From Armatimonadota bacterium (GTDB lineage: Bacteria > Armatimonadota > Zipacnadia > Zipacnadales > UBA11051): 64,000 nt of DNA. The DNA lies in the NCBI GenBank assembly GCA_013178155.1, contig JABLXH010000018.1, forward strand, positions 2,702 through 66,701. The letters are read 5' to 3'. A program made the translations under genes and the position numbers. Positions 26,950-57,802 of this stretch are shown here, in pieces; the first letter of the stretch is position 1, and every line of letters begins with the position of its first letter. The notes under the pieces were generated by a model, which was not told the origin of the DNA, did not search any database, and saw nothing but the letters and a program-made list of their open reading frames with translations.

Positions 26950-26956
26950 GAGCAAT

Positions 26957-27057: not shown

Positions 27058-27083
27058 TGCGCTCTTACAGTCGGCGTGAGACG

Positions 27084-38037: not shown

Positions 38038-38082
38038 CCGCTCTACAGCTCCCTTCCTTGCCGCCTCTCTGCGGCCCCTCGC

Positions 38083-38295
38083 TCACCACCCCGCCGCCAC
38101 GTAACTCACCTTTCCGTAACGGCCCCGGCTGTAACGTCCTCCCTCCAGACCGCCCGGCCGCCCACTAAGAAACACATAGCGGTTTCCCACGTCCAGGGTG
38201 CGATCCGGCAGCCGTCCCGCGACCGTCGCCCCGCCGCGCTGCGCGGGTCGCACCCGCTGGTCCACCACTTCCTTTACCAGAGCCGCCAATCTCAT
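38083..38295 (-). CDS. small hypothetical protein (70 aa) in phage block
   Basis: Only a short ORF between tail genes supports it. Confidence 0.3.
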   Translation of the reverse strand: MRLAALVKEVVDQRVRPAQRGGATVAGRLPDRTLDVGNRYVFLSGRPGGLEGGRYSRGRYGKVSYVAAGW

Positions 38296-38307
38296 CTCCG
38301 AACCTCC

Positions 38308-40605: not shown

Positions 40606-40629
40606 GCCATCGCTCCCGTGCGCCCCGGT

Positions 40630-43600: not shown

Positions 43601-43842
43601 CACCCCGCCACCTCGGCCGCAATCCCGCGCTCCAGCGCCGTGCGGTCTGCACCATCGTAGTCCAGCCCACTGGTCCCGTCGGAGCGCCAGGCCTGCTCAA
43701 CCAGCGCCAGTGCAAGGTACGTGAGGCCAGCCTTCAAAGCGCCCACTCCAACCGGGTTGTCCTCAGCCTCCGCCTCCCGGGCCCGGACCACACCGACCAG
43801 CCCCGCTATCCTCTCGCCCAGACCCGGCTGCACCAGACCCAT
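40630..43842 (-). CDS. giant phage tail protein (1070 aa) with carboxypeptidase-regulatory-like beta domains, a CxxC..CxxC zinc-ribbon and C-terminal BNR-like repeats
   Basis: 'DADGRWSF', 'DESGYWEVEIP' (CarbopepD_reg/Cna-B-like). 'CPYCGGPTW...CIQCADC'. C-terminal 'TSDGDNT', 'DDGGRW'. Confidence 0.6.
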   Translation of the reverse strand: MGLVQPGLGERIAGLVGVVRAREAEAEDNPVGVGALKAGLTYLALALVEQAWRSDGTSGLDYDGADRTALERGIAAEVAGCLEQLVGLSRATPRRDWSEVEELAECATLLDGAASEEWRPELVQLGGQWGVTVARKRTSGGLVSFEAAGGVVTGRVYKALEPDTVLDGADVYLVEQIALEAMDFRTPVGALTGKYVVMVDDPYWGRRLQPEEFCAPPLDETFVMGYRVRGRVLHNGAPVEGANVSLEGITVDHQGVESRFWDSQEYNELIWSPELETWVEGPSVVAPIRTDADGRWSFVCPKGHGAIYQRAGDRRDESAETAGQRSDRHVDKLWMVYRGRRAELREGEEAVIDLLSGRLQITGEPGAWVRVGVHDEAGDAYLVPTDGMVTVTGLPSGEHTVVQFRRDAWGEWDSRYGCARKSVVVREGETATVDMGAMRFYDPEAGVIAGRVYERMGRPAVGVSILPLNYETGEFGEPIAETDESGYWEVEIPQDGLSGDPWVHDAVWGSVPVLGYPYSDVVLGARAYAGWQEIYKPELWRKGDRGHANFQYLQDGIWVEDTQTQQRYETEEAAYGGWVTVEALPKFRYVADPWELLLSGPQLREYSLWSESGVLQSSFGLRSQSFCEYEDLAGQFRASGYYPEAKFLIGGKVKGGVVAGHSAPIGVELPEALRLGLEFGEHEWYTQVRAERAFEGGAEASCWTDLLCPYCGGPTWRDPDVPGYRRGYCIQCADCFGAAEAMDGRTHFLTPGLLAGEAAYALGFLRVRRGGGVAASRVRRHWRPDLYNETDDYLVQGGLGQATNAPRWFARHVDEVDDGKGFGRFDLAHNPPFIAGHDLEYFGELPEVGRELGLSQVKLCFPWGYVQEEQAVVEVDCRRSDGMVETRRVVIPAGTRGPNEEDPVGQVIPVTPVSKSRAELVGAPYEGAGLYDAVTDVRIVEAPPSGQCRFALVNDGPLLAPGAGVSVTERAPTHVAWQIGGLWGGPHLLDDAVGQLFLFWGQEGEVWMTRRGGLPGQWETGRAVTSDGDNTNPTVEKDGTGRLVLLWEHAGAVARAHSVDDGGRWLVVGS

Positions 43843-43930
43843 ATGCCCACCTCTTATCCCGCCAGGGCCCTTCCCTCGACCGCCCGGGCCCCCGCAACAA
43901 TCACCGGAACCAGCTTCGGGCAGGGCGCTG

Positions 43931-44641
43931 CTACCAGCGAGCCATGTCTAACCTCAGCCGCTCCTCCGCCGCTGCCACCATCGCCGCCGCCCGTTCCTTC
44001 GCCCGTCGCCACTCCCGACGTCGGTCCCGGGCCAACCCGTGACCCGTTTCGTGCGTCTCGCCCAGCCGGGACTGACCGCGCTTCCCCTCCCGCTCACCGG
44101 CACCCGGCGTCGCTGGCCGGCGCCGCACTATCGGCCCCAGCACCTCACGCACCGTGCCGACGGCCATGGCCGCCTTCATCTCAAACTCGGCCGTCCGGAG
44201 ACCCCGCCCCCCACCAGGACCATTGGCATTCAGCTCCAGTCGCACTGGCTGCCGGCCGCTGACGGCCCGAGCAGACATCGAACCTGGCCTTGCGGGCGCC
44301 ATACGCCTTGCCCCCGTCCCGTCGGCCGCTGGCTCCCGTGCGCTGTCGCGCCATCGTCCTGCCACGGTGCCCTCCTGACCCCTCACGGCCTCCTGGGTTG
44401 CCCGACCCCTGAGGTCCTCCTCCGCGACCTGCATCCCCCGCTGCAGCCTCCCCTCTCGCTCCTCGGTCAGCGCGTACTTCCCAACGTGATGGGCCGCATC
44501 GGCCGTCACTTCGACTTCGGGCAACCCCCGGGCTACCACCGACTGGGCCGACCGGGCTATGCGCGGCCCCTCTGTCTGCGCCAACATCACTGGCACCGGC
44601 GCCCTCTTGAGCCTCCGTCTCCCCTTGCTCTCACCAACCAT
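43931..44641 (-). CDS. phage hypothetical protein (236 aa), Arg/Ala-rich; possible short tape-measure or tail-assembly protein
   Basis: Position between the tail chaperone-like small genes and the giant tail protein. A function guess is inference only. Confidence 0.45.
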   Translation of the reverse strand: MVGESKGRRRLKRAPVPVMLAQTEGPRIARSAQSVVARGLPEVEVTADAAHHVGKYALTEEREGRLQRGMQVAEEDLRGRATQEAVRGQEGTVAGRWRDSAREPAADGTGARRMAPARPGSMSARAVSGRQPVRLELNANGPGGGRGLRTAEFEMKAAMAVGTVREVLGPIVRRRPATPGAGEREGKRGQSRLGETHETGHGLARDRRREWRRAKERAAAMVAAAEERLRLDMARW

Positions 44642-44942
44642 CGTCCCGCGGACCTCCCGCTCGGTCCCAACCCCTCCAGTACGCCCGCTGCAACTCCGCC
44701 CGCCACGCCTCCACCAACAACTCAGGGGGCGCCGCAGGGCGCCCCCCTCTCCACACGTCCTCCAGAGCCCGCCAGGTTAGCAGCACCCACCCGGGCAAGG
44801 GTCGCGCCGTCCACCCCTCGCTGCCTGCGAGGGCCTCCAGCTCCCGCTGATCCGCGAAGTCAACCCCCTCCCGCCTCTGCGGGGCCGCACTTGCCGGAAG
44901 CCAAGCCGCCAGATCGGCCAGACCAACCGTCGCCGCAGTCAT
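44631..44942 (-). CDS. small phage hypothetical protein (103 aa)
   Basis: Short ORF co-oriented in the tail module. It overlaps the next gene by 11 nt. Confidence 0.35.
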   Translation of the reverse strand: MTAATVGLADLAAWLPASAAPQRREGVDFADQRELEALAGSEGWTARPLPGWVLLTWRALEDVWRGGRPAAPPELLVEAWRAELQRAYWRGWDRAGGPRDDGW

Positions 44943-44962
44943 CTGCAGCGCCCCCAGCCAAG

Positions 44963-45385
44963 TCAGTTTTTTTTGGCCAGCTCGATCTCCGCTCTCTGCT
45001 CAGGCAGACGGTGGTTAACCTCGGCGATGACCTCCTGCACCCAGTCGCTCAGCGGCGGCGTCAAGGCCATCAGCAGCCTTACCCTCTCCTCCGGGTCTTC
45101 CGGGCGCCCCTCCCACGCAACGCTCCCGTCCGACCCCGGGGCGGCCAGGTGGAAAGCCACGACGCTGTGCCGAAAGTCATACTCGGCCATCGCCCTCAGG
45201 TCATACCGCCTTCTCACCTGCACCGCTGCGTCGCCAACCCCTCCGCTTACCAGCAGGTACTCCTCATATAGGCCCAGGCTCTCCCGCTCCAGCGCCTCCG
45301 CTTCAGTCAGCGCCCGCACCTCTATCCAGCCCTCGCCCTCAGGCCTCTCGTACACCCGACTCGGCGGTTGCCACTCACCATTCAT
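44963..45385 (-). CDS. phage hypothetical protein (140 aa), tail-assembly chaperone position
   Basis: Acidic 140-aa ORF immediately after the putative major tail gene. Confidence 0.5.
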   Translation of the reverse strand: MNGEWQPPSRVYERPEGEGWIEVRALTEAEALERESLGLYEEYLLVSGGVGDAAVQVRRRYDLRAMAEYDFRHSVVAFHLAAPGSDGSVAWEGRPEDPEERVRLLMALTPPLSDWVQEVIAEVNHRLPEQRAEIELAKKN

Positions 45386-45394
45386 CGCTCGCTC

Positions 45395-46312
45395 CTAAGC
45401 CAGCACCACCGGCGGCGTCAGACCATCGAGGCTTCCCAGCCCCACGAACTGCACCGTCTCCACGATCCGCTGCTCGTGCGACCCTGGCAGGCCCAGATCA
45501 CTCTCGGTGTACAAGACGCGGGGCAGGGCGATGCTCGCTACGTTCGCGCCCCGGACCAACTCAATCCTCAGCGCTGCCTCCTGCCCCGCCGCGAAGTCGC
45601 TGTAGACCCTCGTGTCCACAAAGTCGCGACTGATCAGCCCCCGGCAACGCAGCCCGCTGAGGTTGTAAAGCTGCTGGGGATGTTTGCCACCCGTCAGCCG
45701 CAGGCCCTCGGCAGGTTCCTCCAGCATGTTGTCTATCACCAGGCGAATCCGTTCGCAGGCCACATCCTCCAGTAGCTGACCGCCACCACTGGCCAGTGCC
45801 ACCTCGGCCTCCTGATACAGATAGGGCGCTGTCGTCGGCAGACTCGGGGACGGATGCGCACCCCTCTCCATCTTCAGCGCCGCCAACTCCAGAGTGCACG
45901 TCACCGGCTGGCCCTTCACGAAGTCCATGACCATCCGCCGCACCTTGGCATCGGTCAACTGCTTGACCTCGTTCACGCAGTCCACTACCACCGACGCCCA
46001 CTTGCCCTGACTGTCCGCATCTCGATCCTGGACCCAGGAAAACAACGCGGTCAGTGCCCCGGGCACCAGTGGCACCGTCACCTTGCCTTCGGCCCACTCA
46101 CCAGCGCTGTAGTACTTGCTCTCGTAGGCGTTGTGATCCGCCATGTCCAGCGTGACATAGCTCTTCTGCCACTTCAGTGTGTCACTCTGACCACCGGGAC
46201 CTGCCATCAGGGGCAGCCATACACTCGGCGCCACATACTCCCCCTTGCTGGCCTGCAACCCAAACCCAAAGGCGCCCTCCTGCGCCAACGCCACTCCCAT
46301 CCTGCGCACCAC
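45395..46312 (-). CDS. putative phage major tail protein (305 aa)
   Basis: Positional call, downstream of the connector/adaptor genes and flanked by intergenic repeat copies. Confidence 0.5.
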   Translation of the reverse strand: MVRRMGVALAQEGAFGFGLQASKGEYVAPSVWLPLMAGPGGQSDTLKWQKSYVTLDMADHNAYESKYYSAGEWAEGKVTVPLVPGALTALFSWVQDRDADSQGKWASVVVDCVNEVKQLTDAKVRRMVMDFVKGQPVTCTLELAALKMERGAHPSPSLPTTAPYLYQEAEVALASGGGQLLEDVACERIRLVIDNMLEEPAEGLRLTGGKHPQQLYNLSGLRCRGLISRDFVDTRVYSDFAAGQEAALRIELVRGANVASIALPRVLYTESDLGLPGSHEQRIVETVQFVGLGSLDGLTPPVVLA

Positions 46313-46465
46313 CTTCCTCAGTACCTAACCGTTCGTCCCGGCCCCATCCGCCGGGCGTGTTTCGCCTCCCTGGTACGCCCTGCGTTCCCGCCAGGCTCGC
46401 CGCCCTCCCTGTTCCCTGACCTTCACCTCGCAGAGCAGCCACCAGGCGGCGATGTCCGCGTTCGC

Positions 46466-46507
46466 GCCTCTCCAATCTGTGCGAAGAGACACGAGGGGAG
46501 TTGTCAC
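46466..46507. repeat. phage-block intergenic repeat, degenerate copy R0
   Basis: gcctctccaatctgtgcgaagagacacgaggggagttgtcacc. The stop codon of the 46504..47190 gene lies in 'gtTCAcc'. Confidence 0.7.
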
Positions 46508-47190
46508 CCGCTCCACAACTCTGACCGCTTTGCCAGCACCCCGATTCGTGCCACGCGCAGCCCCGGCACCTTCGACCCCAGCTCCTCTGCCACTCGACTC
46601 TGCAACTCCACCTCGACCACCTGAGCGTGCCAGCAGGTCTCGCTCAGGTAGGGGTCAGCCATCACCAGGTTGAACAGGTCAGCCACCTTGGCGCCCAGCA
46701 CTTCCTCCGCACTCTCGCCCTCGCCCCCCTGACGCAGGTAGTAGACGTCCATCAGGTACTCCTGCTGGTACATGCGATTGCTGCCGGTGTTGGCCGGCTG
46801 GTTCATACGCACCGGGCACACCACCGCAGCCGGCAACTGCAGCGAGTGGGGCAGAGGCATCAGCCACGGCTGCCCACTGGCTACCCAACGCAACTCGGCT
46901 CCCGCCCCCTCAGCTAGCTGCAGCACCGCGCCCTGCACGGGCCCGAAGCTGCCCTCTACCTCCGTCCACAGCCGCACCTCCGTACTGCTGATCCGCTCCG
47001 CCACCTCATGCTGCTCAACCTGCCCCCCGTTATCCACCAGCCGAACTGCCGTCCCCGGCGCAAACAGCCGGGTGCTTCTGACTCGGACCCGATCCGACCC
47101 GTCAGTCGCTGCCGTCAGCTCCGAAGCCCCCTGCACGGCCATACGCAGCGCCTGCACAATCTCATTCTGATGGTACATGTCCACTCCCAT
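46504..47190 (-). CDS. phage head-tail joining/tail-terminator-like protein (228 aa)
   Basis: Positional call. Its stop codon is embedded in an intergenic repeat copy. Confidence 0.5.
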   Translation of the reverse strand: MGVDMYHQNEIVQALRMAVQGASELTAATDGSDRVRVRSTRLFAPGTAVRLVDNGGQVEQHEVAERISSTEVRLWTEVEGSFGPVQGAVLQLAEGAGAELRWVASGQPWLMPLPHSLQLPAAVVCPVRMNQPANTGSNRMYQQEYLMDVYYLRQGGEGESAEEVLGAKVADLFNLVMADPYLSETCWHAQVVEVELQSRVAEELGSKVPGLRVARIGVLAKRSELWSG

Positions 47191-47245
47191 GGAGCCACCT
47201 GCCCTTCCGCGCCATCACACCATCCCCTGCCATCGCCTTCTCCCT

Positions 47246-47288
47246 CCCCCTCTCCGCTGTGTGGCGGGGGAGCCAGGGGGTGAGAACC
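47246..47288. repeat. phage-block intergenic repeat, degenerate copy R1
   Basis: cccctctccgctgtgtggcgggggagccagggggtgagaacc lies between the 47292..47837 and 46504..47190 genes. Confidence 0.7.
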
Positions 47289-47291
47289 CTC

Positions 47292-47837
47292 CTACCACAG
47301 CCGCCGCACCACAACCCGACGGTGATGCCCCAGACCCGCTTCGTCCTCCACGCCCAGCACCTCATAGCGCTGTCGCAGCGCTACCGGGCTTCCCTCTGCA
47401 TGCGCCACCTCCACAGGTCGCTCCAGCAGGAACCCTTCTCCTGACCATTCCGCCACCCGCCGCACCTCGCGACCGGCGCCCTCGCCAATCTCGATCTCAT
47501 CTCCTGCCAACAGGCTGAGAGCCCCGGAGACCTGGATGACCTGATCCGCCACCTCCAGCGGCTCGGCCAGCACGCCTTGCGCAGCCCGTCTCACCACCAG
47601 GTCGCCCACCGCCACCTCCGGAACGACCCCGGCCAGGTACACCACGTGGCTGCTTTCGGGGTACAACCCCAGCAACCCCGACCGCGCCGTCGCCCCCGCC
47701 GGCTGCACCAGGCCCTTGACGCTGGCCACCAGGACATACTCCGGGTTGGCCACTCCCAGCTCCGGCCCACTGGCAACCGTCGCCCGCTCGATGCCGAGAT
47801 CATGCTCCAGCAACGCCGCCAACGCCACATCCACCAT
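47292..47837 (-). CDS. phage head-tail adaptor/head-closure-like protein (181 aa)
   Basis: Positional call. Confidence 0.5.
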   Translation of the reverse strand: MVDVALAALLEHDLGIERATVASGPELGVANPEYVLVASVKGLVQPAGATARSGLLGLYPESSHVVYLAGVVPEVAVGDLVVRRAAQGVLAEPLEVADQVIQVSGALSLLAGDEIEIGEGAGREVRRVAEWSGEGFLLERPVEVAHAEGSPVALRQRYEVLGVEDEAGLGHHRRVVVRRLW

Positions 47838-47857
47838 CGCTCACCCCTCGCTCTCCC

Positions 47858-48511
47858 CTAGACCGCTCTCAGGCGCATGACTCGGTAGCTCGCCAAAGCC
47901 TCCTTGGCCTCGCTGCACAGCCGGCATACCGCCGTGGCATACCGACCGTCTCGTCCGTAAGTCACCGCGTAGTCGCCGATCCGGGTGGCGGTAACCTCGC
48001 CCGCCTCGCCTCCTGCCGCGCCCAGGATCTCCGCAGCAGTCAGTTTGGCCTGGGCTATCCGGACCGCCTCTGGTACCGCCTCAAAGCCCCAGCTCACCAC
48101 CACCCCCACATTCAGGACCCCCGCCGCAAAGACCCGCAGCCGAGCCTTGCTCGTCAGCCGCAACATCCCCAGTTGCGGATAGGCCGCCCACTCCTCCTCG
48201 GCCAACTCCTCCTCACCCACCGTCACCGTGTGGACCAACGCCGGCGGCCGCACTCCAGCCTCACCCAGCATCAACCGTTCTGTGCCGCTGCCGTCCAGCC
48301 ATACCTCTTCACGCTCATGCCACATGAAGTCTCTTCCCGCATACCGCTCCACTGCCTCGCGGCTGGCCGCCAGCAGCCCACTGATCCGGTCCCGCAACGC
48401 CTCTGGCCCCAGTTCGTCACTCAGGTCGTAGCCCGCCAGCAACTGCTCTACCTCGGTGACGCTGCAGTAAGAGGTCGTGCGCCCGGTCGTGAACACACCC
48501 TCCGCTACCAT
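47858..48511 (-). CDS. phage gp6-like head-tail connector protein
   Basis: N-terminal 'VTEVEQLLAGYDLSDELGPEALRDRISGLLAASREAVERYAGRDF' matches the conserved N-terminal helix pair of gp6-like connectors. Confidence 0.55.
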   Translation of the reverse strand: MVAEGVFTTGRTTSYCSVTEVEQLLAGYDLSDELGPEALRDRISGLLAASREAVERYAGRDFMWHEREEVWLDGSGTERLMLGEAGVRPPALVHTVTVGEEELAEEEWAAYPQLGMLRLTSKARLRVFAAGVLNVGVVVSWGFEAVPEAVRIAQAKLTAAEILGAAGGEAGEVTATRIGDYAVTYGRDGRYATAVCRLCSEAKEALASYRVMRLRAV

Positions 48512-51500
48512 GTCTCAGACCACACTCCCTCCGAGTTCCGCACCCGCACCTTCCAGAAGTAAGTCGTGTCATCGGACAGCTCCGGTCCCCCAAACTCGAC
48601 CTCTGTCTCCGGGCTTGCCACCACACCGCTGTCCCAGATGTCCCCGGTGTTGGCTGCCAGCAGCTCAGCACTGGACGCCACCAGCACCTGGTACGCCGTC
48701 TGGGGCTTGCCCTGCGGATCGGAGTACCTCCACGAGAGCGCCGGTGTCAGGTCCGTTATGCCCGTGGGATTGATCTGACCCTCCACCCGCAGCTCCGTCG
48801 CCGTTGGCGCTCCCACAGCGTCCCGACCCGCCGCGTACCACGCATAGAGACTGGGCGAAACGTCGGTCGCCAGCGGCCGCTGCAGCACAAAGCGCAACCG
48901 CACCTCCTCCGCGGTCACGTGGTTGAGTGACACCCCGCCCCACGACACCACCTGCTCCACGCCCGGCCCCAGCACGTCACAGTCCTCGGCCCCAAATCCC
49001 GCCAGCGGCTCCTCCGTGCGCGGGTCAATCACCTCCACCCGCACGCTCCCCGCCCCTGGTTCGCAGTTCACCAGCAATCGGGACCAACCGCTGCTCGGCC
49101 TCTGCAGTACCGGCGTCTCCAGGAACCCGGTTACCGCCCCCGCCGCCAGCTCGTAGTACGTCTCCCGGTCACGCCCAATGTGCGCCATATTCAGACCGGT
49201 GCCGGCGTAGTAGTACAGAACCAGCTTGTCCCCCAGCAGAAACGAAGTCCGCACCGGCCCCCCGGCCAGGAACTCTTCATCCACCGGCTGGAAGTGCCGG
49301 TCATCCTCCGTCGCCCAGAGCCTGAGGTAGCTCCCAAAGGACAACACGTACAGCGTCGTGAAGTCGTCCGACACGGGCCGCGGGTGTAGCTCGTACAGAT
49401 CCGCCGCTGCCAGAGGGCTCAGCAGATTGCCGTGCGGCAGCAGGAAGAAGCTCCTGAGGTCTCCGCTCGTCCACCCGGCGAGCGGGCGCCGGTTGTAGCT
49501 GAGGTAGTCCCCCGACATCAGCATCGTCTTGAACCGACTGTAGCCCACAAAACGACGCTCTGGTCTCGAAGCATAGGGATTGTGCGCCACCATCCAGTCC
49601 GCGTCCCGGTTGCCCCACAGGCAGATGCTGCCACCGTCCGCCGACAGCTTCTCCGTGCCGCCCATGCCCGGCAGCAACGGGTTCTCCGTCCACCAGTGTT
49701 TCTCCCAGTCAAAGCTCCAGCGGTCCTGCGCGCCCACCAGCGCCCTGATCCAGTAGTGATCCGGATTTGCCTCCGTCCCCCCCTGCAGCATCGTCCAGGA
49801 CCCATCCGGCATCCCCAGCACCGTCGCGATCCCCGGGCTCTCCAGACCCCAGGTCGCGTCCCGGGTGCTCCATGGTCGCACGTCCTCCGGACTCAGGAAG
49901 GGATTCTGCCGTCCTGCGGGAGGGGTCTCGTCAGCCCACGACACCCGTGACCGGGTCGCATCCCAGGTTCCGACCAGATAGCCCCCTCGCCACACGCCTC
50001 CGGGGTCCGTGCCTCCCACCAGCACCGTCACCCGGTCCAGAAGCTCCTGGGGCTGCACGACCGAGTGCAACTCCGCCGTGTGCCGCCAAGTCCCCGCCGC
50101 CCGCAGGTCCGCCTCCACACCCGCAGGATCCGGGTCAACGACCGGCTTGGCCGATCTCCAGACCACACCCTCCTGGCGCCACACCCGGCTACTCTGACCA
50201 GTGTCCACGTCTCGCACCAGGAAACTGTCCCCCAGCTCGAAACCCCGCCCCAGCGCGGAGTCCTCGGGAGCCATTGTCTGGTACCCGCCGGGCCCCTCGA
50301 TGGTCAGGCTCTCCAGCCGGATATCGCATTGATAGCTCGCCGGCACCGGGTGGCTGATGCTTCGCCCAAACATCATGTACCGCCCAAGCGGGTCACTCCG
50401 GTAGTTTGTCAGCGTCATCAGCGCCGACCGACCACGCTCATACCGCACCAGCGTAGTGCTCTTGTCCGCGCTATAGACACACTCCAGCTCCAGCCACGGA
50501 CGATCGGTGCTGTAAGACTCCCACAACCACGCCTCCAGATTCTGCTGCTCATTCAGGGGCGTCGCCGATGCGAGCAGGCGCCCCCGGTGATCCACAACTC
50601 CCTTGTCGCCGGCCGCTGGCACTCCCGCCAACGCCCCGCTCACAGTGATCACGCCGGTCGCCGCCGTGTAGCCCGTCACCTTCAGCCGACACCCCGCCTG
50701 CGCCCCCGTCCGCATCGTCAGCTCTGCGCCAACCCAGTAGCCATCCCCACGGTTTGGCAGGTTCGTCTTGAACCGGGACGCCGTGTTCCCCGCATCGGCC
50801 ACCACCGCGAACAGCTCTCCGGTACCCCAGGTCCCGAAGTTGTTCCCGAGTTGGCCTCCAGCCACGTAGCACAGGGGACCCAGCGTGATCTGCGTCCCCA
50901 CCGGGTTCGTCTCCGCCGGGCAGTTCACGCGCATCCGAATCGTCGCCGGACACGCCATGTGAAACGGGTTGATCCATTCCCGCAGCCACCCTACGCCTTG
51001 CCCCGTGCTGCTGCCTCCATATAGCTGACTGACTTGCACCTGGCCGTAACGGGCGTGGTTGGTCAGCGTCGTGTAGGCGCTCGCCCCCGCATGCGTAATG
51101 GGGGTCAGCACCGCCTGCAGCGGAACGCGGTCATCGGGCGTGTTGTCATGCCGAGGCATGCCGATATTGAAATGGTGTCTGACGCCTCGCGCCCGTGACC
51201 CATCGTCCAGCCGGCAGAACTCATCCCAATCCGCACTGCCAACCTCCCAGTACGCCGTGGCGTCGCCACCAGCTATCTCCGCATCGTAGCTGCCGTCGAA
51301 GGTCGCCAACAGGGTCAGTTGCCCCGTGCCATCGCTCTCCCGGATCAGTCGTCGGCGCCGGTTCTGCCTCGTGGCCCACGAGTTGGCGCCCCCCAGGATC
51401 GCGTCATGCTGCGCCTTCGTCATCACGCCGTCCCAGACTGCGAAGTTGTCGTAGCACCCGTTCACCGCTTCCGCCGTCTCCGTGGCTCCCGGGCCCAGGT

Positions 51501-51912
51501 ACAGCTTCGCCGCCTCCACCACGGGTGCCGAAGCGTTGTTTACCTGCGCCGGCGCCTCAACCCCATTCACATACACTCGCAACTGCCCGGCCCCTGGCGT
51601 CGTGAAATCCCACGTACAGGTCACCGGCATCCAGTGGTTCCTGTCGCGCCACGGGTAGTTGGGCCAGCTAACCCACCACGAAGTGCCGCCTGACCGACAC
51701 TCGAAACCCAGCGAATCTGCCCCGAACACACCGAAGCGCAGATAGTTGTTGCTGTCGCCCACGGCCTTCCATAGCGGACGCCACGACGGATAGTCCGGGG
51801 AGGCATGGAACCAGAAGAACACCGTCCCCTGGCTGCCCGGTCCGATCCTGATGTTGCCCGGACCCGAGTAATAGAACCCCGGCTTGCCCACATACAGAAA
51901 CTGCTTCCTCAT
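48505..51912 (-). CDS. giant phage protein (1136 aa) with N-terminal LamG/concanavalin-like jelly-roll and C-terminal fibronectin-III-like domains, encoded between capsid and connector genes
   Basis: The ORF-track N-terminus 'MERGEGRE...' is a translation of the intergenic repeat. The real ATG at 51910-51912 ('MRKQFLYVGKPGFYY') has GGAGG 6 nt upstream. LamG-like region 'WRPLWKAVGDSNNYLRFGVF...LRVYVNGVEA'. C-terminal FN3-like 'PTGITDLTPALSWRYSDPQG...YFWKVRVRNSEGVWSETW'. Confidence 0.65.
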   Translation of the reverse strand: MRKQFLYVGKPGFYYSGPGNIRIGPGSQGTVFFWFHASPDYPSWRPLWKAVGDSNNYLRFGVFGADSLGFECRSGGTSWWVSWPNYPWRDRNHWMPVTCTWDFTTPGAGQLRVYVNGVEAPAQVNNASAPVVEAAKLYLGPGATETAEAVNGCYDNFAVWDGVMTKAQHDAILGGANSWATRQNRRRRLIRESDGTGQLTLLATFDGSYDAEIAGGDATAYWEVGSADWDEFCRLDDGSRARGVRHHFNIGMPRHDNTPDDRVPLQAVLTPITHAGASAYTTLTNHARYGQVQVSQLYGGSSTGQGVGWLREWINPFHMACPATIRMRVNCPAETNPVGTQITLGPLCYVAGGQLGNNFGTWGTGELFAVVADAGNTASRFKTNLPNRGDGYWVGAELTMRTGAQAGCRLKVTGYTAATGVITVSGALAGVPAAGDKGVVDHRGRLLASATPLNEQQNLEAWLWESYSTDRPWLELECVYSADKSTTLVRYERGRSALMTLTNYRSDPLGRYMMFGRSISHPVPASYQCDIRLESLTIEGPGGYQTMAPEDSALGRGFELGDSFLVRDVDTGQSSRVWRQEGVVWRSAKPVVDPDPAGVEADLRAAGTWRHTAELHSVVQPQELLDRVTVLVGGTDPGGVWRGGYLVGTWDATRSRVSWADETPPAGRQNPFLSPEDVRPWSTRDATWGLESPGIATVLGMPDGSWTMLQGGTEANPDHYWIRALVGAQDRWSFDWEKHWWTENPLLPGMGGTEKLSADGGSICLWGNRDADWMVAHNPYASRPERRFVGYSRFKTMLMSGDYLSYNRRPLAGWTSGDLRSFFLLPHGNLLSPLAAADLYELHPRPVSDDFTTLYVLSFGSYLRLWATEDDRHFQPVDEEFLAGGPVRTSFLLGDKLVLYYYAGTGLNMAHIGRDRETYYELAAGAVTGFLETPVLQRPSSGWSRLLVNCEPGAGSVRVEVIDPRTEEPLAGFGAEDCDVLGPGVEQVVSWGGVSLNHVTAEEVRLRFVLQRPLATDVSPSLYAWYAAGRDAVGAPTATELRVEGQINPTGITDLTPALSWRYSDPQGKPQTAYQVLVASSAELLAANTGDIWDSGVVASPETEVEFGGPELSDDTTYFWKVRVRNSEGVWSETW

Positions 51913-52067
51913 CCCAACCTCCCCATCAGTACTCGTCCTGCCACCCCAGACGGTCAGGGCGGCGAGCCTCCACCTCCGCCCGCCGCCCGTCACCTCTACA
52001 GACAGCGCCGCATGTCCCACCGCCTTCGGTAGGAGCGGCCACGAGACTGCGATGCCCTCCCGCCCCT

Positions 52068-52107
52068 CCCCCCTCTCCACCCTGTGGAGAGGTGCCGGGG
52101 GTGAGGT
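52068..52107. repeat. phage-block intergenic palindromic repeat, copy R2
   Basis: cccctctccaccctgtggagaggtgccgggggtgaggt lies 5 nt after the capsid stop. Confidence 0.85.
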
Positions 52108-52112
52108 GCCGT

Positions 52113-53051
52113 CTAGCTCTTCGCCACGTTCACGGCCACCACCATCGCATCCGGGTTCTCGATGGCCACCGCCACCCGAGTCGTGATCGCATACACATTC
52201 ACGCCCCGCAGGATGTCCTTGTCCTTGTCAATGCGGATCTCCCGATGGATACCAAACACCAGGTTCTCACGCGGCGTCAGAAACCCGTAGCTCAGGTTCG
52301 TCCCCACGTGACCAAGGATCCCGCTGAGGTTGGTCGGAATGACCGGCACCGACACCACGGGCACCCCCATGTACGGCGGCACCTCACCACCAAGCAATGC
52401 CTTGTCCCCCAGCGACGTGCCCCGGTCGGCAAAGGTGTCATGCCAATCCTGCGCTGCCGCCGGCGCAAAGTAGAACCGCAGGTCCTTGTAGTTGCGCTTG
52501 TACTTGTCCGGCAGCGCCCGGAACATCGCCCCAAGGCCCGACTTGTCCAGCGTTGCCCCCTCCAGGTCCACCACGTGCCCGTCATCCGCCAGCACCCGCC
52601 AGCCGTCCAGCCCCGACAGGAACGGATCAGCGGAGTTCGTGTCACCGTGCACCGCCAGCTCCTCCAGGTCCGTGGCCGTCTGCTTGGCCATCACCCGCAC
52701 CACCGTGCTCTCCAGACCATCGCCCTCGATGCTGTCCTCCAGCGCCTCAAAGGTGATCTCAAACGGGGTGATGACGTCCGTCGCCCGTAGTATCACCTTC
52801 CCGAACGCTGGCTCGCTCAACGTGGCCGGAGCCACTCCCTCATTCTTGAGTTGGCTCACACGCCCCGTGGTCGCGATAGTGTCCAGCTCGGTCACCGCCG
52901 AGCGCATCCGCACCACGCGCACTTCCTTCAGCATTACCGACTGGTCCACTACCAGGTCCGTGAACCGTTTGGCCTGCTCAGTCCCCAGCAACCCACCGTC
53001 CGCCAGATCCGTCGTGTCCACGGCCTTCTGCAGCATCTCGTCTACTGTCAC
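52113..53051 (-). CDS. HK97-fold major capsid protein
   Basis: 312 aa with the Phage_capsid pattern ('...TLSEPAFGKVILRATDVITPFEITFEALEDS...VMAKQTATDLEELAVHGD...'). Confidence 0.82.
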   Translation of the reverse strand: MTVDEMLQKAVDTTDLADGGLLGTEQAKRFTDLVVDQSVMLKEVRVVRMRSAVTELDTIATTGRVSQLKNEGVAPATLSEPAFGKVILRATDVITPFEITFEALEDSIEGDGLESTVVRVMAKQTATDLEELAVHGDTNSADPFLSGLDGWRVLADDGHVVDLEGATLDKSGLGAMFRALPDKYKRNYKDLRFYFAPAAAQDWHDTFADRGTSLGDKALLGGEVPPYMGVPVVSVPVIPTNLSGILGHVGTNLSYGFLTPRENLVFGIHREIRIDKDKDILRGVNVYAITTRVAVAIENPDAMVVAVNVAKS

Positions 53052-53492
53052 TCACAGCACCCCTTCCCAGATCTCGTCTGCCGTCAGTAGTCGCGCCCGC
53101 TGGCCGCGCAGCCCCTGCGGGACCCCTGGACGCGTTACCTCCTCTGCCGTCCGGTCAGCCTCGGCCGCCCTGCTCTTGGTCAGAGCGTCCGTATCCGGGT
53201 TCTCCCTCCACTCGCTGACCGCCTCGACCAACTGCGCCTCGCTACCACCTTGCCCCACGCCATACGCCGCCTCCACCGCCGCCACGCGCTCACTCAGCTG
53301 TCTGACCTGTTCTGCCAGTCCTGCCAGTCCGTCACCACCGCACCCCCCGCCGCAACCGCCCTCATCCACGTTGTTCGCCAGGGCCGGCTGACCCAGACTC
53401 GCCTCGTAGCCTCCCTCACTATCCCGCGGCCCGGCCACCGGGCGGCGAGACCTCCTCATCCACCACCAGAGCGCCCTCAGCCAGCCGCGCAT
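53052..53492 (-). CDS. phage scaffold/decoration-like acidic Gly-rich protein
   Basis: It lies between the protease and capsid genes. ATG at 53492 (GAGGTGG RBS) overlaps the protease end by 16 nt. An alternative ATG is at 53459. Confidence 0.45.
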   Translation of the reverse strand: MRGWLRALWWWMRRSRRPVAGPRDSEGGYEASLGQPALANNVDEGGCGGGCGGDGLAGLAEQVRQLSERVAAVEAAYGVGQGGSEAQLVEAVSEWRENPDTDALTKSRAAEADRTAEEVTRPGVPQGLRGQRARLLTADEIWEGVL

Positions 53493-54007
53493 CCGCTTCC
53501 CACCTCGCCCTGCCCCCTCTCCCGCTCCGTCCTCGCCGCCGACACCAGGGTCTCCACCCACGTCTCCGGGTTCTGTGCCTCACTGCTGTGGCAGACCGCC
53601 ACATGGTCCAGCTCCGCCATCTCCACCTTGCGCACCCGCCGCCCCGTCCGGACGTCCATCTCGTATGTCACCTCGCGGACGCGCCCTCCCACGCTCAGCC
53701 TGCGACCCCGCAGGCGCACCAGCCCGCGCTTCAGCCGACCCTCGACCCGCAGCTTGCCATCCTCCACCCAGCAACGCTCCACGACCCCGATCGCTCGGCC
53801 GCCGTGGCGCTCAAGCAGTGGCACCGGCTGCGCCGCCGCCAGGCTTTCCAGAGCTGCCTCTGTCATGCAGTCGCCCTGACGGTCCACTGCGGTCGTCGCG
53901 GCGACCCCCTGAAACCGCACTGCCGTGCGATTACCCCGCCCAGCTCTCAGCAGCACCGCAAAGCCCATGCGGCCTCCGCTGCCCTCACTCACTCCCCGTC
54001 TGGCCAA
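53477..54007 (-). CDS. HK97-family prohead protease (Peptidase S78)
   Basis: 'FQGVAATTAVDRQGDCMTEAALESL...VPLLERHGG.AIGVVERCWVEDGKLRVEGRL' fits the S78 pattern with the catalytic His. Confidence 0.72.
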   Translation of the reverse strand: MARRGVSEGSGGRMGFAVLLRAGRGNRTAVRFQGVAATTAVDRQGDCMTEAALESLAAAQPVPLLERHGGRAIGVVERCWVEDGKLRVEGRLKRGLVRLRGRRLSVGGRVREVTYEMDVRTGRRVRKVEMAELDHVAVCHSSEAQNPETWVETLVSAARTERERGQGEVGSGCAAG

Positions 54008-54186
54008 CCCTCACTCCCCTCCCCGAAACAGCAAGCGGCCCACTCTCCCGAGTGAGCCGCAATGATCAACGTTCATCCTCGCCTTGTCTGCCCGACGTGC
54101 CGCCGCAGTGGCCCGACGTGATTCACCAACCTCAATCTCTCACTCGCCCTCTGCACCCGGTGGTGAGGGGGCCAGGAAGTGAGGCC

Positions 54187-55398
54187 CTATCCCAGCGGCG
54201 CCAACCCCATCTTGCCCCGAATCTCGTCTACCGTCAGCGCCCCAATGCCTGCGTATACCGCGGCCACCTCGGCCTCTTCCTTCGCCTCCGACAGATCGAG
54301 TTCGTTGAACCGAAATGCCCAGTCGCCAATCCCCAACTGTTCCGCAATCAGCCGGTTGAACCGGTACTCCACCCGCCGCTGCTCGGGCCGCACCACTTGC
54401 TCCCGGAACGTCTTGTCCTGGTCTTTGCTGTTGGCCAGGTTGGCGTTCTCAATAACCGTCACCTTGCTCGGCGGCACGCGATGAACCAGCAGCACCTCGT
54501 CTCGATTCGCCCGCCGGTAGTCCAGGAACGCCGCGTCCTCCTGACCCCCCGCTGTCAGTTTCTCCAGACGCACCCGCGTCTCTCGCCCCGGCACCTCGAG
54601 CACCAGCGTCTTGTGCCCCTGCCCCTTCACCTCGCTTTGCATGAAGTGGCGCAGTTGCTCCAGAACCTCCTCTGACAACTGACCACCCTCCACGATGATC
54701 GCCATCCGGGGCACCGCGTTATGGGTGAAAAAGTCCACGTTGTACTCTCGGGCCGCCTTGTCCCCCAGTACCGCCGATACCGCGGGCACAATGTCTGGCA
54801 CTCCATAGTAGCTGGACATCGGCGTGTACTTCATGAAGTGCAGCATCTCGTTTTGCACCAGCCCGCTCTCCGGGTCAATCTCCTCCGGTCCACCAACCAT
54901 CCGGAACCGCCGCCGCTGACCCTCGCGTTCCTGGACGAACCCCTTCCGGTCCGCGCGCACGCGCACAGTTGTCGCCGGCACATGGTACATCCCGTCCAGT
55001 TGGCCCCGGCTGTTGCGCGTCAATTCCATATACCCGTTGCCAACGCACTCCACGTCCGTCCACACCGCTCGCATGACCTCCGTGAAGGTCATGTCTGGAT
55101 TGCAGGTGGCAAAGAGATGCTCCAGCACTGCCAGGTTCTCCGCCGAAGCCTCTCGCTCATCCCCGACAGGCACGAAGCGGTATCCCAGACCCACGATGTT
55201 GGTAGCCTTGGCATCAACGCACGCCTTGTGGGCCGCATTGGTCTCATACAGCGAGGCCAGCGCCTCCAGATCATACGGCGGCTGCACAACCTCTCCGGTT
55301 GCGTAAGCTTCACTCCACACCGCCTCTGGTAGCTGCTGACTACGCCCACCGACCGTCTCACCGACCACCCTCGCCTTAATCAGCTCATCAATCGCCAT
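54187..55398 (-). CDS. phage portal protein (HK97 family)
   Basis: Portal pattern 'NIVGLGYRFVPV...VECVGNGYMEL...'. The ORF-track N-terminal 64 aa derive from the intergenic repeat. ATG at 55396-55398 has GGAGG 8 nt upstream. Confidence 0.82.
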   Translation of the reverse strand: MAIDELIKARVVGETVGGRSQQLPEAVWSEAYATGEVVQPPYDLEALASLYETNAAHKACVDAKATNIVGLGYRFVPVGDEREASAENLAVLEHLFATCNPDMTFTEVMRAVWTDVECVGNGYMELTRNSRGQLDGMYHVPATTVRVRADRKGFVQEREGQRRRFRMVGGPEEIDPESGLVQNEMLHFMKYTPMSSYYGVPDIVPAVSAVLGDKAAREYNVDFFTHNAVPRMAIIVEGGQLSEEVLEQLRHFMQSEVKGQGHKTLVLEVPGRETRVRLEKLTAGGQEDAAFLDYRRANRDEVLLVHRVPPSKVTVIENANLANSKDQDKTFREQVVRPEQRRVEYRFNRLIAEQLGIGDWAFRFNELDLSEAKEEAEVAAVYAGIGALTVDEIRGKMGLAPLG

Positions 55399-55526
55399 GC
55401 CTCCAACCTCCGCTACGTTGCCCATCACTCGCCCGGCCCGCCGGCCACCGACCCCGTCCGCCCTCGCCTCCCGCCTCTTGCCGTCTGGAGAGGCCGGACC
55501 TGTCCGGCCTGCCGTCACACCTTTCT

Positions 55527-55560
55527 CCCCTCTCCACTGTGTGGAGAGGGGCCGGGTGTG
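55527..55560. repeat. phage-block intergenic palindromic repeat, copy R3a
   Basis: cccctctccactgtgtggagaggggccgggtgtg. Confidence 0.85.
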
Positions 55561-55577
55561 CGCCTTGCCCTTGCCGT

Positions 55578-55620
55578 CCCCCCTCTCCACTCTGCGGAAA
55601 GAGAACCAGGGGTGAGGTCA
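55578..55620. repeat. phage-block intergenic repeat, degenerate copy R3b (contains stop codon of upstream BNR gene)
   Basis: cccccctctccactctgcggaaagagaaccaggggtgaggtca. The TGA of the 55618..56052 gene lies in 'gtgaggTCA'. Confidence 0.8.
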
Positions 55621-56052
55621 CACCTCACTCTCCTTCACCCACGTCTCACCATCATCCACACTCACGTACACATCGATCGCCGGCGCCCTCTGGACAGCGA
55701 CCACCAGCGGTCGCCCTTGGGTGTCCACCTTGACCAGCCCCGCCCGTGCCTCATCCGCTGGCGACGCCACCAGCCGCTCCTCGCTCCCGTCGGCAAACCT
55801 TAGCCACGTCTGACACCCATCGGCACTCTTCCGCAGATACTGCCCGCCGCCGCGATACCCTACCACGTACCAGATCCCCCCATACTCCACCATCACCGGA
55901 TGGCTCAGCCCTGTCACCTCACCCACCTCGCTCCCCTCCCCGCCGTCGCCGTACGCCACGCACCATAGGCCATCGCCGTTGCCCTCTTGTTTTTCTCTTA
56001 TGCGCCTGATATGCGCCTGACCCAAACTCCCGGAGCGATGAGGCTCCGTCAT
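55618..56052 (-). CDS. small BNR (bacterial neuraminidase) repeat-containing protein within phage head module
   Basis: Two S-x-D-x-G-x-T-W motifs, 'SADGCQTW' and 'VDDGETW'. It lies between the terminase and portal genes. Confidence 0.5.
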   Translation of the reverse strand: MTEPHRSGSLGQAHIRRIREKQEGNGDGLWCVAYGDGGEGSEVGEVTGLSHPVMVEYGGIWYVVGYRGGGQYLRKSADGCQTWLRFADGSEERLVASPADEARAGLVKVDTQGRPLVVAVQRAPAIDVYVSVDDGETWVKESEV

Positions 56053-56109
56053 GCTGTTCCCCGCTCTCCCGCCGGGGTTGGGGTCGGAGTGTCACCCCCT
56101 CGCCTTTCT

Positions 56110-56150
56110 TCCCTCTCCACCCTGTGAAGAAGGGCCGGGGGTGAGGTCAC
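56110..56150. repeat. phage-block intergenic palindromic repeat, copy R4 (contains terminase stop codon)
   Basis: tccctctccaccctgtgaagaagggccgggggtgaggtcac. The terminase stop TGA (plus-strand tca) is at 56147-56149. Confidence 0.85.
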
Positions 56151-57667
56151 ACGATCCTCCCCCTGACCCCATCGTCCTCACCCCATGCCCGCACCGCCTC
56201 ACTCACCGCACCGGCCACCGCATCAGCCACATCCTTCGAACCCCCTGGCGGATGGTCCACCTTCACGCCCCGCACCAGCTCCAGCCGCCGCAGTTCCCGC
56301 AGCAACGGCTCGTAGGCATACATCCGGAGCCGCCCGTCATACGCCAACTCCTTCAGCGTCTCGTACGCCCCCGTATCCCGATCCACCGACACCGTCGCCA
56401 CCTGCAGACCGTGGCGCCGCAGAATCTGCTGACTATCGGCACTCTGCCAGCCGTCGTAGCTCACTTGGGCAATCGGAAAGCCCCGCGCTCTGAGCGCCAG
56501 TATCAGCTCGCGAACCTGTGCCAGGTCCACCTCCCCACGCGCGGGAGCCGCGATCCGGTGCATCAGCTCCACCACCGCCACCGGCCGCCCCGCCTCGGTG
56601 ACCACCTTTGCCATCGCCACGCCGCACGCATCCCGTCGCAGCCCCAGGTCCACGTGCACATATCGGGCCTCCCGGTCGTCAGGCCGAAACCACGCTGCCA
56701 GCGCGCCCTGGCCCTCGATCGGATGCCGCCGGTGCGCCTCGCAGGCCTCCTCCAGGGGCCCTATGTCCGTGAAGTAGGGCTGAAACGCCGTCCCGGGCAG
56801 CGCCGCCAGATCTCGCTTGGCCTTCTCTGGGTTCCGACGAAACTCCGCCTCATACTCCACGGGCACCGTCAGCCCATCAAACTCAAAACGCTTTCCGCAA
56901 AACCTCCCACGAGGCTTGACCTCCCACGTTGCCCTCCGCGACCCGTAGATCGTCGGATCACTCTCCGCCTCAGCCAGCTTCCGCATGACGAAATCGTCGC
57001 AGTGCCGCGGCGAAGAGGCGATAACCATCAGCCCCTGGTCGCCAAACCTTGACCGGATCCGCCGCTGCAAGGCCAGATACACATCCTCCGCCGCCTCCCG
57101 CCGACCATCCAGGGTCTCCACGAAGAAGCTCGCCTCATCCATGGTCGCGCACAGCACGTTCAGCCCCAGCGGAAAAGTCTCACTGGAATTACCCGGCAGC
57201 ACCACCACATTCTTCGGAAAGTGCAACTCTCGCCGCACCCGCGCATCGGGCTTGTAACGCTCCCCAAACCATGGCGACCGCTGCACCAGCTCCCGCAGCT
57301 CCCCAAACACCACCTTCTCCGCCACTCGCGCCGTCGGACCCACCGTCGCCAGGACGATCTGACTCCCCTCCGCCAACCCCAACTCCCTTTGCGGCGCCCG
57401 CAGACACAGCGTCCGATACAGCCGGTAGAGTAGCGCCAGCGTGCACAGGTACGACTTCCCACTCCCAATCCCCCAGCACAGCACCGCCTCCTGGTAACGG
57501 CCCCGGAAGATCCGTCCCAGCGTCCTCAGCACCTCCGGATAGACGCTGGCCCCCACCCCCAGGTACTCCTCGTCACACACAAAACGCCGCACCGAGACCG
57601 GCCTCTCATCCCACCTCTGTCGTCCCGCCCGGGCCACCGGCGCCAGACCTTCGCCCTTCTCGTCCAT
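56147..57667 (-). CDS. phage terminase large subunit
   Basis: Walker A-like 'CWGIGSGKSYLCT' near the N-terminus and a C-terminal nuclease-like region. 506 aa. First gene of the block. Confidence 0.78.
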   Translation of the reverse strand: MDEKGEGLAPVARAGRQRWDERPVSVRRFVCDEEYLGVGASVYPEVLRTLGRIFRGRYQEAVLCWGIGSGKSYLCTLALLYRLYRTLCLRAPQRELGLAEGSQIVLATVGPTARVAEKVVFGELRELVQRSPWFGERYKPDARVRRELHFPKNVVVLPGNSSETFPLGLNVLCATMDEASFFVETLDGRREAAEDVYLALQRRIRSRFGDQGLMVIASSPRHCDDFVMRKLAEAESDPTIYGSRRATWEVKPRGRFCGKRFEFDGLTVPVEYEAEFRRNPEKAKRDLAALPGTAFQPYFTDIGPLEEACEAHRRHPIEGQGALAAWFRPDDREARYVHVDLGLRRDACGVAMAKVVTEAGRPVAVVELMHRIAAPARGEVDLAQVRELILALRARGFPIAQVSYDGWQSADSQQILRRHGLQVATVSVDRDTGAYETLKELAYDGRLRMYAYEPLLRELRRLELVRGVKVDHPPGGSKDVADAVAGAVSEAVRAWGEDDGVRGRIV

Positions 57668-57763: not shown

Positions 57764-57802
57764 CCCCTCTCCACCCTGTGGAGAGGGGCTGGGGGTGAGG
57801 TC
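57764..57802. repeat. phage-block palindromic repeat, copy R5a (upstream of terminase)
   Basis: cccctctccaccctgtggagaggggctgggggtgaggtcc. Confidence 0.85.

Follow-up and report, generated by a model that had tools for sequence, protein, structure and literature searches.

A giant LamG and propeller protein, candidate particle-borne adhesin, encoded between the capsid and head-tail adaptor genes of a phage-like cluster in Armatimonadota

Introduction

What role could a protein of more than 1100 residues play when its gene stands next to that of a major capsid protein? The question is raised by a 64,000-nt stretch of DNA from an Armatimonadota bacterium (contig JABLXH010000018.1 of assembly GCA_013178155.1, positions 2,702 to 66,701), to which, at its full length, we refer as the window. 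A phage-like cluster of structural genes in the window encodes, between the major capsid protein and a head-tail adaptor, a protein that we call the giant. An earlier note, made from the sequence alone, had remarked that this slot normally holds small genes, and two cultured phages that we inspected from among the nearest capsid relatives bear the remark out: the capsid gene is followed by genes for 104 and 76 aa in Bacillus phage 0105phi7-2, and by genes for 88, 247 and 203 aa in Stenotrophomonas phage DLP_3.

That the particles of phages and gene transfer agents (GTAs) carry auxiliary sugar-binding modules is known already. What is new here is a 125-kDa protein, a lectin with a propeller of predicted glycosidase type, fixed as a core gene in the capsid-adaptor slot of a GTA-like carrier in Armatimonadia. 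We propose that the giant is a particle-borne accessory adhesin, glycan-binding and possibly glycan-cleaving, that is made together with the head-completion proteins, and we put the chances of this reading at about even.

Results

A core gene between capsid and adaptor

The earlier note had located the open reading frame (ORF) of the giant correctly (Table 1), omitting its strand, minus, and had counted the stop codon into a length of 1136 aa; the protein has 1135 aa, a mass of 124.5 kDa and a pI of 5.2. A mechanical ORF call yields a longer, GTG-initiated frame that extends to 52080. We place the start at the ATG at 51912 because the N-termini of the homologues align there: almost all full-length homologues carry the N-terminus MRKQFLW, at this ATG or a few residues from their own start. 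The strong GGAGG ribosome-binding site of the earlier account is indeed present, as GGGGAGG 5 nt upstream of the ATG. Hydropathy analysis found neither a signal peptide nor a transmembrane or hydrophobic segment. The ORF is a real gene and no chance product of high GC content, since 43 relatives, for the greater part full-length, match it at 33-61% identity and its AlphaFold2 (AF2) model, run on an alignment of 39 family sequences, is a confident one (predicted local distance difference test, pLDDT, 89.3; predicted template modelling score, pTM, 0.84). The family is small and sharply bounded: clustering at 90% identity yields 43 groups, and at 50% about 14 full-length ones. A second search with the family profile brought no new full-length relatives, its sole new matches being two short C-terminal ones, and tblastn against 50,697 deposited phage genomes found no relative of the giant's core; the C-terminal immunoglobulin (Ig)-like domain was matched in one record.

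How constant is the position of this gene? Eight elements recovered with the giant as seed, from metagenome-assembled genomes of the class Armatimonadia and 'Ca. Zipacnadia', carry capsid, giant and adaptor in this order (L001/L012, L003, L008, L010, L011, L014, L015 and the P0031 locus). A metagenome scan seeded with the capsid, made to avoid circularity, returned 35 loci, of which 14 have at least about 0.9 kb after the capsid gene; the giant comes next in all 14. The order persists where identity has fallen to 60% for the capsid and 31-39% for the giant; the capsid protein is 60-88% identical in related elements. An apparent exception, L030, is of the L001 type described below: its capsid gene is followed by two host genes (DUF1559 and GT9), and the contig stops short of the giant. 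The slot before the adaptor is likewise fixed in more than 20 diverged elements, and the PHROG assignments of the two neighbours in the window, phrog_1623 for the capsid and phrog_442 for the adaptor, agree with the earlier placement of the gene between major capsid and head-tail connector.

The stop codon of the giant lies inside the first codons of the adaptor gene, and this overlap indicates that the two are probably translationally coupled. An overlap of 7 nt, as in the window, or of 4 nt is present in most relatives (L001, L003, L008, L015, the P0031 locus, L040, L044, L051 and L056). In its rate of divergence the giant is comparable to the adaptor, g181 and g228 and exceeds the capsid and tube proteins. 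By these comparisons, the giant is a core gene of the element, probably expressed with the head-completion and neck genes. The retention in all members of a gene of 3.4 kb, which makes up 17% of the cluster, argues that it is needed for particle function.

The junction with the capsid gene is of a different kind: every relative has a non-coding gap there, 108-1400 nt long, that contains strong GC-rich hairpins, and the corresponding gap in the window is strongly structured as well. Scans for sigma-70 promoters and T-tract terminators around the giant found nothing above background, which is uninformative at 66% GC and with promoter rules that may differ in this phylum. It is at this junction that host genes have entered in one lineage (L001/L021), where cellular genes are inserted at 7046-9200, 14926-15571 and 16771-17379 and the cluster is otherwise intact: DUF1559 and GT9 genes stand between capsid and giant, and a PhdYeFM-type toxin-antitoxin pair and another DUF1559 gene between the neck and tube genes. 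Could the giant itself have arrived in the cluster as such a host gene or moron, with no relation to the particle? The insertions in L001 would be a precedent, and the NCBI name of the protein is merely 'LamG domain-containing protein'. Against this reading, the giant is present in every related element, including those found via the capsid alone, it shares nucleotides with the adaptor gene, it has diverged about as far as the adaptor, g181 and g228 have, and its codon usage and GC content at third codon positions (GC3) are indistinguishable from those of the cluster. The insertion of a host gene, which the earlier note had named as a result that would undo its proposal, is thus rejected; we regard this explanation as largely refuted and leave it hardly any probability.

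A further observation concerns the same junction. In L001, L002, L020 and L021 (9200-9858), one and the same giant-neck-tail block has, in different assemblies, three distinct upstream contexts, namely the head module, an ArsP/DHDPS region and a GluRS/ThiC/SurA region. The breaks fall within about 800 nt upstream of the giant, and they reflect either a genuine hot spot of rearrangement or an artefact of assembly at dispersed repeats. The P0018 loci were considered as evidence that the cluster is split just upstream of the giant and were rejected, the three assemblies sharing mosaic repeats there.

Domain architecture and predicted fold

The two terminal domains reported in the earlier note, LamG-like at the N-terminus and fibronectin type III-like at the C-terminus, are both Pfam matches above the gathering score. 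Laminin_G_3 reaches 54.1 bits (cutoff 27.6) in the giant and is matched in 31 of the 39 family members. Ig_Rha78A_N reaches 77.3 bits (cutoff 27.4), and the same domain, which spans aa 1037-1135 by the AF2 strand pattern, matches the N-terminal domain of a rhamnosidase in the Protein Data Bank (PDB; 6i60, E 1.4e-19). We considered an identity as alpha-L-rhamnosidase (glycoside hydrolase family GH78) and rejected it: the N-terminal Ig domain of these enzymes alone matches, the NCBIfam score is 55 bits against a cutoff of 1800, and the true rhamnosidases P0044 and P0045 share merely 7-8% of the giant query. The C-terminal Ig domain is missing in 9 of the 39 aligned members and is replaced or extended by Big_5/Big_10 in others. 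This variability of the Ig-type end suggests that the C-terminus faces outward.

Between these domains lie 870 aa for which neither the giant nor any of the 39 aligned members has a PHROGs, NCBIfam or Pfam match. No glycosidase Pfam model matches any family member, and a PDB sequence-profile search with the whole family is limited to the Ig domain and weak LamG matches. The AF2 model of the whole chain is almost entirely beta, a compact monomer with short strands in globular domains nearly throughout, in which LamG occupies aa 1-170 by the strand pattern, the domain itself starting at residue 4. The family-specific region that follows LamG opens with an alpha/beta segment (aa 171-300), whose invariant loop PRHDxxxDDRVPL (aa 253-265) is the most conserved stretch of the family, and continues with beta-rich domains (aa 301-590, by the AF2 strand pattern). 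An insert of about 70 aa within the latter (aa ~367-438) recurs as a repeat in unrelated giant proteins, as judged by matches to profile positions 367-438.

The next part of the chain was modelled separately (aa 590-1035; pLDDT 89.4, pTM 0.89) and shows a propeller of about five blades followed by a beta-sandwich (Table 1). Foldseek matches of the whole chain in the PDB are lectin-winged sialidases, GH43, GH130 and GH32 enzymes and neurexin LNS domains; against viral predicted structures they are many LamG proteins of 900-1400 aa from uncultured phages. The sub-model matches mainly five-bladed enzymes (GH32, GH130, GH117, GH43 and GH62), with six-bladed sialidases lower. Its top matches are GH32 7vco (7e-8), GH130 9gph and 5a7v (template modelling score, TM, about 0.5) and GH43 4mlg (TM 0.53). 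The GH32 alignments span about 550 columns, more than the 446-residue query, and thus reach beyond the propeller. GH32 enzymes have the same succession of propeller and beta-sandwich as the giant, and sialidases of the Vibrio cholerae neuraminidase type combine lectin and propeller as the giant does. Across the five-bladed families, the matches have 9-16% identity, TM about 0.3-0.5 and a root-mean-square deviation of 6.5-17 A, and a PDB profile search with the propeller alone gives marginal matches to GH43 arabinanases (E 0.028-0.2). On the strength of the model, the fold class, a propeller plus sandwich of the five-bladed glycosidase type, is clear, and the family is new, without an assignable GH family.

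Several polar residues of the propeller are conserved: R610, D718, H719, R731, R769-D770, R793, K795, R809, D870 and E917. D718, D770, D870 and E917 are invariant or near-invariant; all were placed by sequence relative to the predicted strands. Their conservation suggests a functional, Arg-rich pocket, which, together with the position in a phage structural operon and the missing signal peptide, sets the giant apart from the propeller glycosidases.

Do the Ig-like domain and the place behind the capsid gene make the giant a lattice decoration like Hoc of phage T4, sitting in high copy on every capsid hexamer and stabilising or coating the shell with Ig-like domains? The earlier note had offered a capsid decoration of this type, about ten times the size of Hoc, as one of its interpretations. 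T4 Hoc has about 376 aa, and the giant is roughly three times as large. Like the giant, Hoc and gp8.5 of phi29 are encoded with the head genes and display an Ig-like domain, and such proteins are expected to be dispensable for assembly and to play a part in adherence. Hoc consists of four tandem Ig-like domains at the hexamer centres and gp8.5 is a trimeric fibre, whereas the giant has a 1000-aa lectin/propeller body that ends in a single Ig-like domain. The giant has no match to a decoration family in PHROG, and its single Ig domain is the one absent in some aligned members. The structured gap parts it from the capsid gene, and its coupling is to the adaptor, a low-copy protein with about 12 copies per particle. 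A T=7 capsid has about 60 hexamers and 415 capsid subunits; assuming this geometry, one 125-kDa copy per hexamer would add about half of the mass of the capsid shell. We therefore consider a Hoc-like decoration very improbable. The other interpretation of the earlier note, an adhesin carried on the particle, fits all the evidence.

Table 1. Features of the giant gene and its surroundings, in window coordinates
Feature	Position	Strand	Basis or remark
Giant coding sequence	48505..51912	minus	ATG at 51912, stop included at 48505; ORF list and translation
LamG / concanavalin-like jelly roll, aa 26-168	51409..51837	minus	Pfam Laminin_G_3 PF13385, E 2.6e-14
Family-specific region, aa 171-590	50143..51402	minus	DSSP of AF2 model, invariant columns; no Pfam/PDB sequence match
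Predicted beta-propeller, aa ~605-930	49123..50100	minus	About five blades by strand pattern; Foldseek, sub-model pLDDT 89.4
Predicted beta-sandwich, aa 931-1030, after propeller	48823..49122	minus	DSSP; GH32-like two-module layout
Ig/fibronectin type III-like domain, Rha78A N-terminal type, aa 1039-1133	48514..48798	minus	Pfam Ig_Rha78A_N PF25788, E 1.3e-21
Shine-Dalgarno-like GGGGAGG	51918..51924	minus	Sequence read; 5 nt 5' of giant ATG
Giant/adaptor 7-nt overlap ACATGGTAG	48505..48511	minus	Giant stop inside first codons of adaptor
Head-tail adaptor gene, 217 aa	47858..48511	minus	phrog_442, E 1.7e-15; downstream neighbour of giant
Capsid-giant non-coding gap, 200 nt	51913..52112	minus	Strongly structured; RNA fold z = -2.9
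HK97-type major capsid gene	52113..53051	minus	PF05065 (Phage_capsid), phrog_1623 E 5e-82; upstream neighbour of giant
Structural-only phage-like cluster, ~20.3 kb	37336..57667	minus	All genes on minus strand, from 57667 down
Perfect palindrome copy CCTCTCCAC-NNN-GTGGAGAGG	52072..52092		In capsid-giant gap; 1 of 8 intergenic copies, 47.2-57.9 kb

Relatives in tail-slot and other contexts

Outside the elements with the head slot, the family has relatives at 33-42% identity in genomes that share no other gene with the cluster of the window; several of these contexts rest on short metagenomic contigs. A number of observations, most of them drawn from these relatives, weigh against a particle-borne adhesin at the head. 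In L005, the relative lies downstream of a 1108-aa tape measure and six further genes, and in L004, a 52-kb uncultivated virus genome of IMG/VR, it follows a 'minor tail protein' and a protein with a tail-fibre-like N-terminus. Two other relatives (L006/L007 and L019) stand in contexts that are not clearly structural. Searches with tblastn and phmmer found no partner gene common to the head-slot and tail-slot contexts, and the AF2 model contains no fibre-type N-terminal anchor, coiled coil or trimeric beta-helix by which attachment to a particle could be recognised. As for cleavage of glycans, the canonical catalytic residues of GH43/GH32 (Asp/Asp/Glu) could not be mapped, and there is no Pfam match of the CAZy type.

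The relatives in L006/L007 and L019, at 36-42% identity, deserve a separate remark. The former, at a GC content of 0.39-0.41, adjoin genes for a glycosyltransferase, a methyltransferase and an RCC1-repeat protein, and the latter adjoins ferritin and PARP-domain genes. The gene has thus crossed into very different genomic backgrounds. In a midpoint-rooted neighbour-joining tree, a simple tree that is truly unrooted, head-slot and tail-slot members interleave in both deep clades, which suggests repeated exchange between the two contexts. The propeller-plus-sandwich module is found by itself as well (P0121, 445 aa), or after N-terminal regions of other kinds. These patterns point to a mobile module that may be used at different virion positions. 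Because it moves between unrelated virion gene sets, stands in different slots and varies at its presumed outward end, we take it to be a host-recognition module rather than a capsid-specific part.

Could the giant then be a tail fibre or receptor-binding protein encoded out of order, docking on a tail tip formed by g1070, g765 and g233? In L004, L005 and L018, relatives at 33-40% identity occupy a tail-fibre slot, the one in L018 ending a run of large uncharacterised genes of similar sizes (691, 273 and 157 aa precede it, and the neighbours have no informative family match). The relative in L018 (P0043, 1229 aa, 3524-7213) has a C-terminal extension that is homologous (E 1.7e-46) to a separate gene of L005 for 498 aa (14760-16256), three genes downstream of the giant homologue there; such fusion or fission of domains in a fibre-like region is shuffling of a kind typical of fibre modules. 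The cluster of the window has no other obvious fibre gene after g233. At the level of fold, the LamG domain, the GH-like propeller and the Ig-like domain are of carbohydrate-binding or -degrading types, and no junction of the cluster is looser than that between capsid and giant, so that the giant groups with the neck and tail genes and not with the head genes. Yet the cluster of the window and more than 20 diverged elements keep the giant in front of the adaptor, the coupling is to a head-completion protein and not to a baseplate gene, no PHROG tail family matches, and the anchor, coiled coil or beta-helix of a fibre is missing from the model. The earlier note had held that its proposal would fall if the protein were a translocated tail fibre or baseplate component, and on this point the evidence is divided: the family does reach into tail-fibre slots, and the member in question stays at the head. 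We rate an out-of-order tail fibre, the main rival of our reading, as possible and rather doubtful.

A non-virion function has to be weighed as well. As a soluble late enzyme freed on lysis, the giant would degrade or bind glycans and so loosen exopolysaccharide or the cell envelope, helping particles to be released or to spread in the manner of a free depolymerase or release factor. The GH-like propeller and sandwich form part of a compact globular monomer with no obvious anchor, no partner gene is conserved across contexts, some relatives live in non-structural neighbourhoods, and the cluster has no recognisable lysis gene, all of which would suit such an enzyme. The strict position and the translational coupling within a structural operon speak against it, as do the lectin and Ig domains, which are typical of proteins displayed on virions; no lysin family matches, and catalytic residues are not identifiable. 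A soluble enzyme is accordingly an unlikely explanation in our estimate.

The surrounding cluster

The cluster comprises, in order, TerL, g144, portal, g176, g169, capsid, giant, adaptor, g181, g228 and tube, followed by g140, a 103-aa ORF, g236, g1070, g765 and g233. The portal belongs to PF04860 and the tail tube to PF18906, and g765 has a weak match to a tail PHROG; the small genes have no family in Pfam, PHROG or NCBIfam, and the adaptor has no relative of solved structure by sequence. No integrase, repressor, replication or lysis genes were recognised among the ORFs examined, and no tRNA. One flank of the cluster carries a DUF1559/prepilin-type protein, a TPR protein and zinc-ribbon membrane proteins, the other a response regulator, a DUF5060 protein, HIT, a solute-binding protein, PFK and secretin; housekeeping genes also adjoin TerL in L008 and the P0031 locus. 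The GC3 and codon usage of the cluster match those of adjacent host genes on the same strand. Since the cluster has about 20 kb, structural genes only and housekeeping flanks, it looks, as far as gene content can tell, more like a GTA or a domesticated element than an intact prophage. The same gene order is seen in more than 20 Armatimonadia contigs, up to 370 kb long.

Where a tape measure gene would be expected (43843-44962, minus strand), there are merely the 103-aa ORF and g236, a 236-aa ORF rich in Arg, Gly and Glu. Neither has a family match, and comparison with the equivalent gene of L003 brought out no similarity. Should g236 be the tape measure, the tail would be short, as in the Rhodobacter capsulatus GTA (RcGTA). 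Another gene, g144 (55618-56052, minus strand), encodes two BNR-like SxDxGxTW motifs and lies between TerL and portal in the window; in L003 and L011 its homologues lie between those of g1070 and g765, and the P0031 locus has a gene of equal size (102 aa) in this place. Within the cluster, then, g144 has moved. A palindromic repeat stands on both sides of g144 in the window.

This palindrome reads CCCCTCTCCAC-AGG-GTGGAGAGGGG on the coding strand, forms the core of a repeat of about 57 nt and occupies most intergenic gaps of the head/neck module. Besides the copy in the capsid-giant gap, it is found at 47249-47269, 54148-54168, 55529-55549, 55582-55602, 56112-56132, 57766-57786 and 57820-57840, which amounts to 16 strand-matches where 0.11 are expected. 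There is none in window positions 1-47000, and the one match outside the cluster (63211-63231) is weak, with 3 mismatches. The same arms recur in diverged relatives (L001 at 5413, 6961 and 9931; L008 at 5902, 14471 and 16968; L015 at 6600-6709). No Rfam family matches the repeat. It may act as an intercistronic attenuator or stability hairpin, or else serve a regulator of the cluster as its operator.

Two further observations concern the rest of the window. A 539-aa protein (31112-32731, minus strand) combines a hydrophobic, signal-peptide-like N-terminus with a long C-terminal series of near-perfect GGGMPGMMPGG(P) repeats and has no Pfam match. The cumulative GC skew has its maximum near 24 kb and drops sharply thereafter (window positions ~24000-30000), with skew of -0.15 to -0.29 from about 36 kb on; the change coincides with the switch to long runs of minus-strand genes, and the peak could be a replication landmark or mere gene-strand bias.

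Discussion

How would an accessory adhesin of this kind act? The giant would be transcribed after the structured gap that follows the capsid gene and translated in tandem with the head-tail adaptor. With no export signal, it would leave the cell with the particles only. Because it is made with, and probably assembled with, the head-completion proteins, we place it on the surface of the particle, with the finished head or neck as the most probable site. There it may bind a cell-surface polysaccharide of the target cell, and perhaps also cut it by means of the conserved Arg/Asp-rich set of residues mapped by sequence to the propeller. The outcome could be a first reversible attachment, or passage through an exopolysaccharide layer.

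The functionally nearest precedent for the proposed role is the head spike of RcGTA, which consists of the base protein Rcc01079 and the head fibre Rcc01080/GhsB. These spikes bind the capsule and mediate a first, reversible attachment to the polysaccharide of the recipient, and the fibre docks by an N-terminal (I/L)-G repeat on the pentameric jelly-roll base protein (PMC7296036). The layout of the cluster in the window is broadly RcGTA-like as well, with TerL, portal, protease, capsid, adaptor, tube and a short candidate tape measure. The two also differ: the RcGTA fibre has 325 aa and is encoded outside the main cluster, whereas the giant, at 1135 aa, is encoded inside, and the N-terminus of the giant, MRKQFLYVGKPGFYY, has no Leu-Gly repeat. 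We found no relationship of sequence or fold between the giant and the RcGTA head fibre. A gene for a base protein of the RcGTA type was not recognised in general family scans of the cluster, which included no search aimed at a base-protein homologue.

Lactococcal siphophages offer a second parallel, in that the same kind of carbohydrate-binding module (CBM) serves as auxiliary adhesin at the neck, the tail tube and the baseplate (PMC6669499). These decorations—the neck passage structure, extensions of the major tail protein (MTP/TpeX) and evolved Dit—resemble the giant family in its distribution over a head/neck slot and tail slots (L004, L005 and L018). The giant possesses neither the BppU-like N-terminal ring of which the neck passage structure is built, nor its trimeric coiled coil, nor its CBM of BppA or beta-helix type, and the propeller-plus-sandwich core of the giant is no known module of this structure. 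The best viral fold matches of the giant (E 1e-13 to 1e-7) are large LamG proteins, such as those of Brevibacillus phage SecTim467 and a structural protein of Synechococcus phage ACG-2014h. They are similar in size and in their multi-domain beta architecture; the global TM of 0.1-0.2 shows that the domains alone are common to them and the giant.

We hypothesize, more tentatively, that the cluster is a domesticated, vertically kept GTA-like system of Armatimonadia and that the giant is its built-in head/neck module for binding and cleaving glycans, which would choose the recipients of DNA by recognising or digesting the polysaccharide on their surface and would be exchanged with phages of the same hosts. 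This wider proposal is a speculative one, to which we give a rather small probability. A full-text search of a library of papers found no GTA described in this phylum.

The giant is a marker of a conserved phage-like element with structural genes only, widespread in Armatimonadia, and it adds a new propeller family, structurally confident (pLDDT 89) and lacking a CAZy-type match, for the testing of glycan specificity. If the giant is located on the head or neck, it would extend the principle of the RcGTA head spike, attachment by the capsid first, to an unrelated lineage and to a far larger, possibly enzymatic module.

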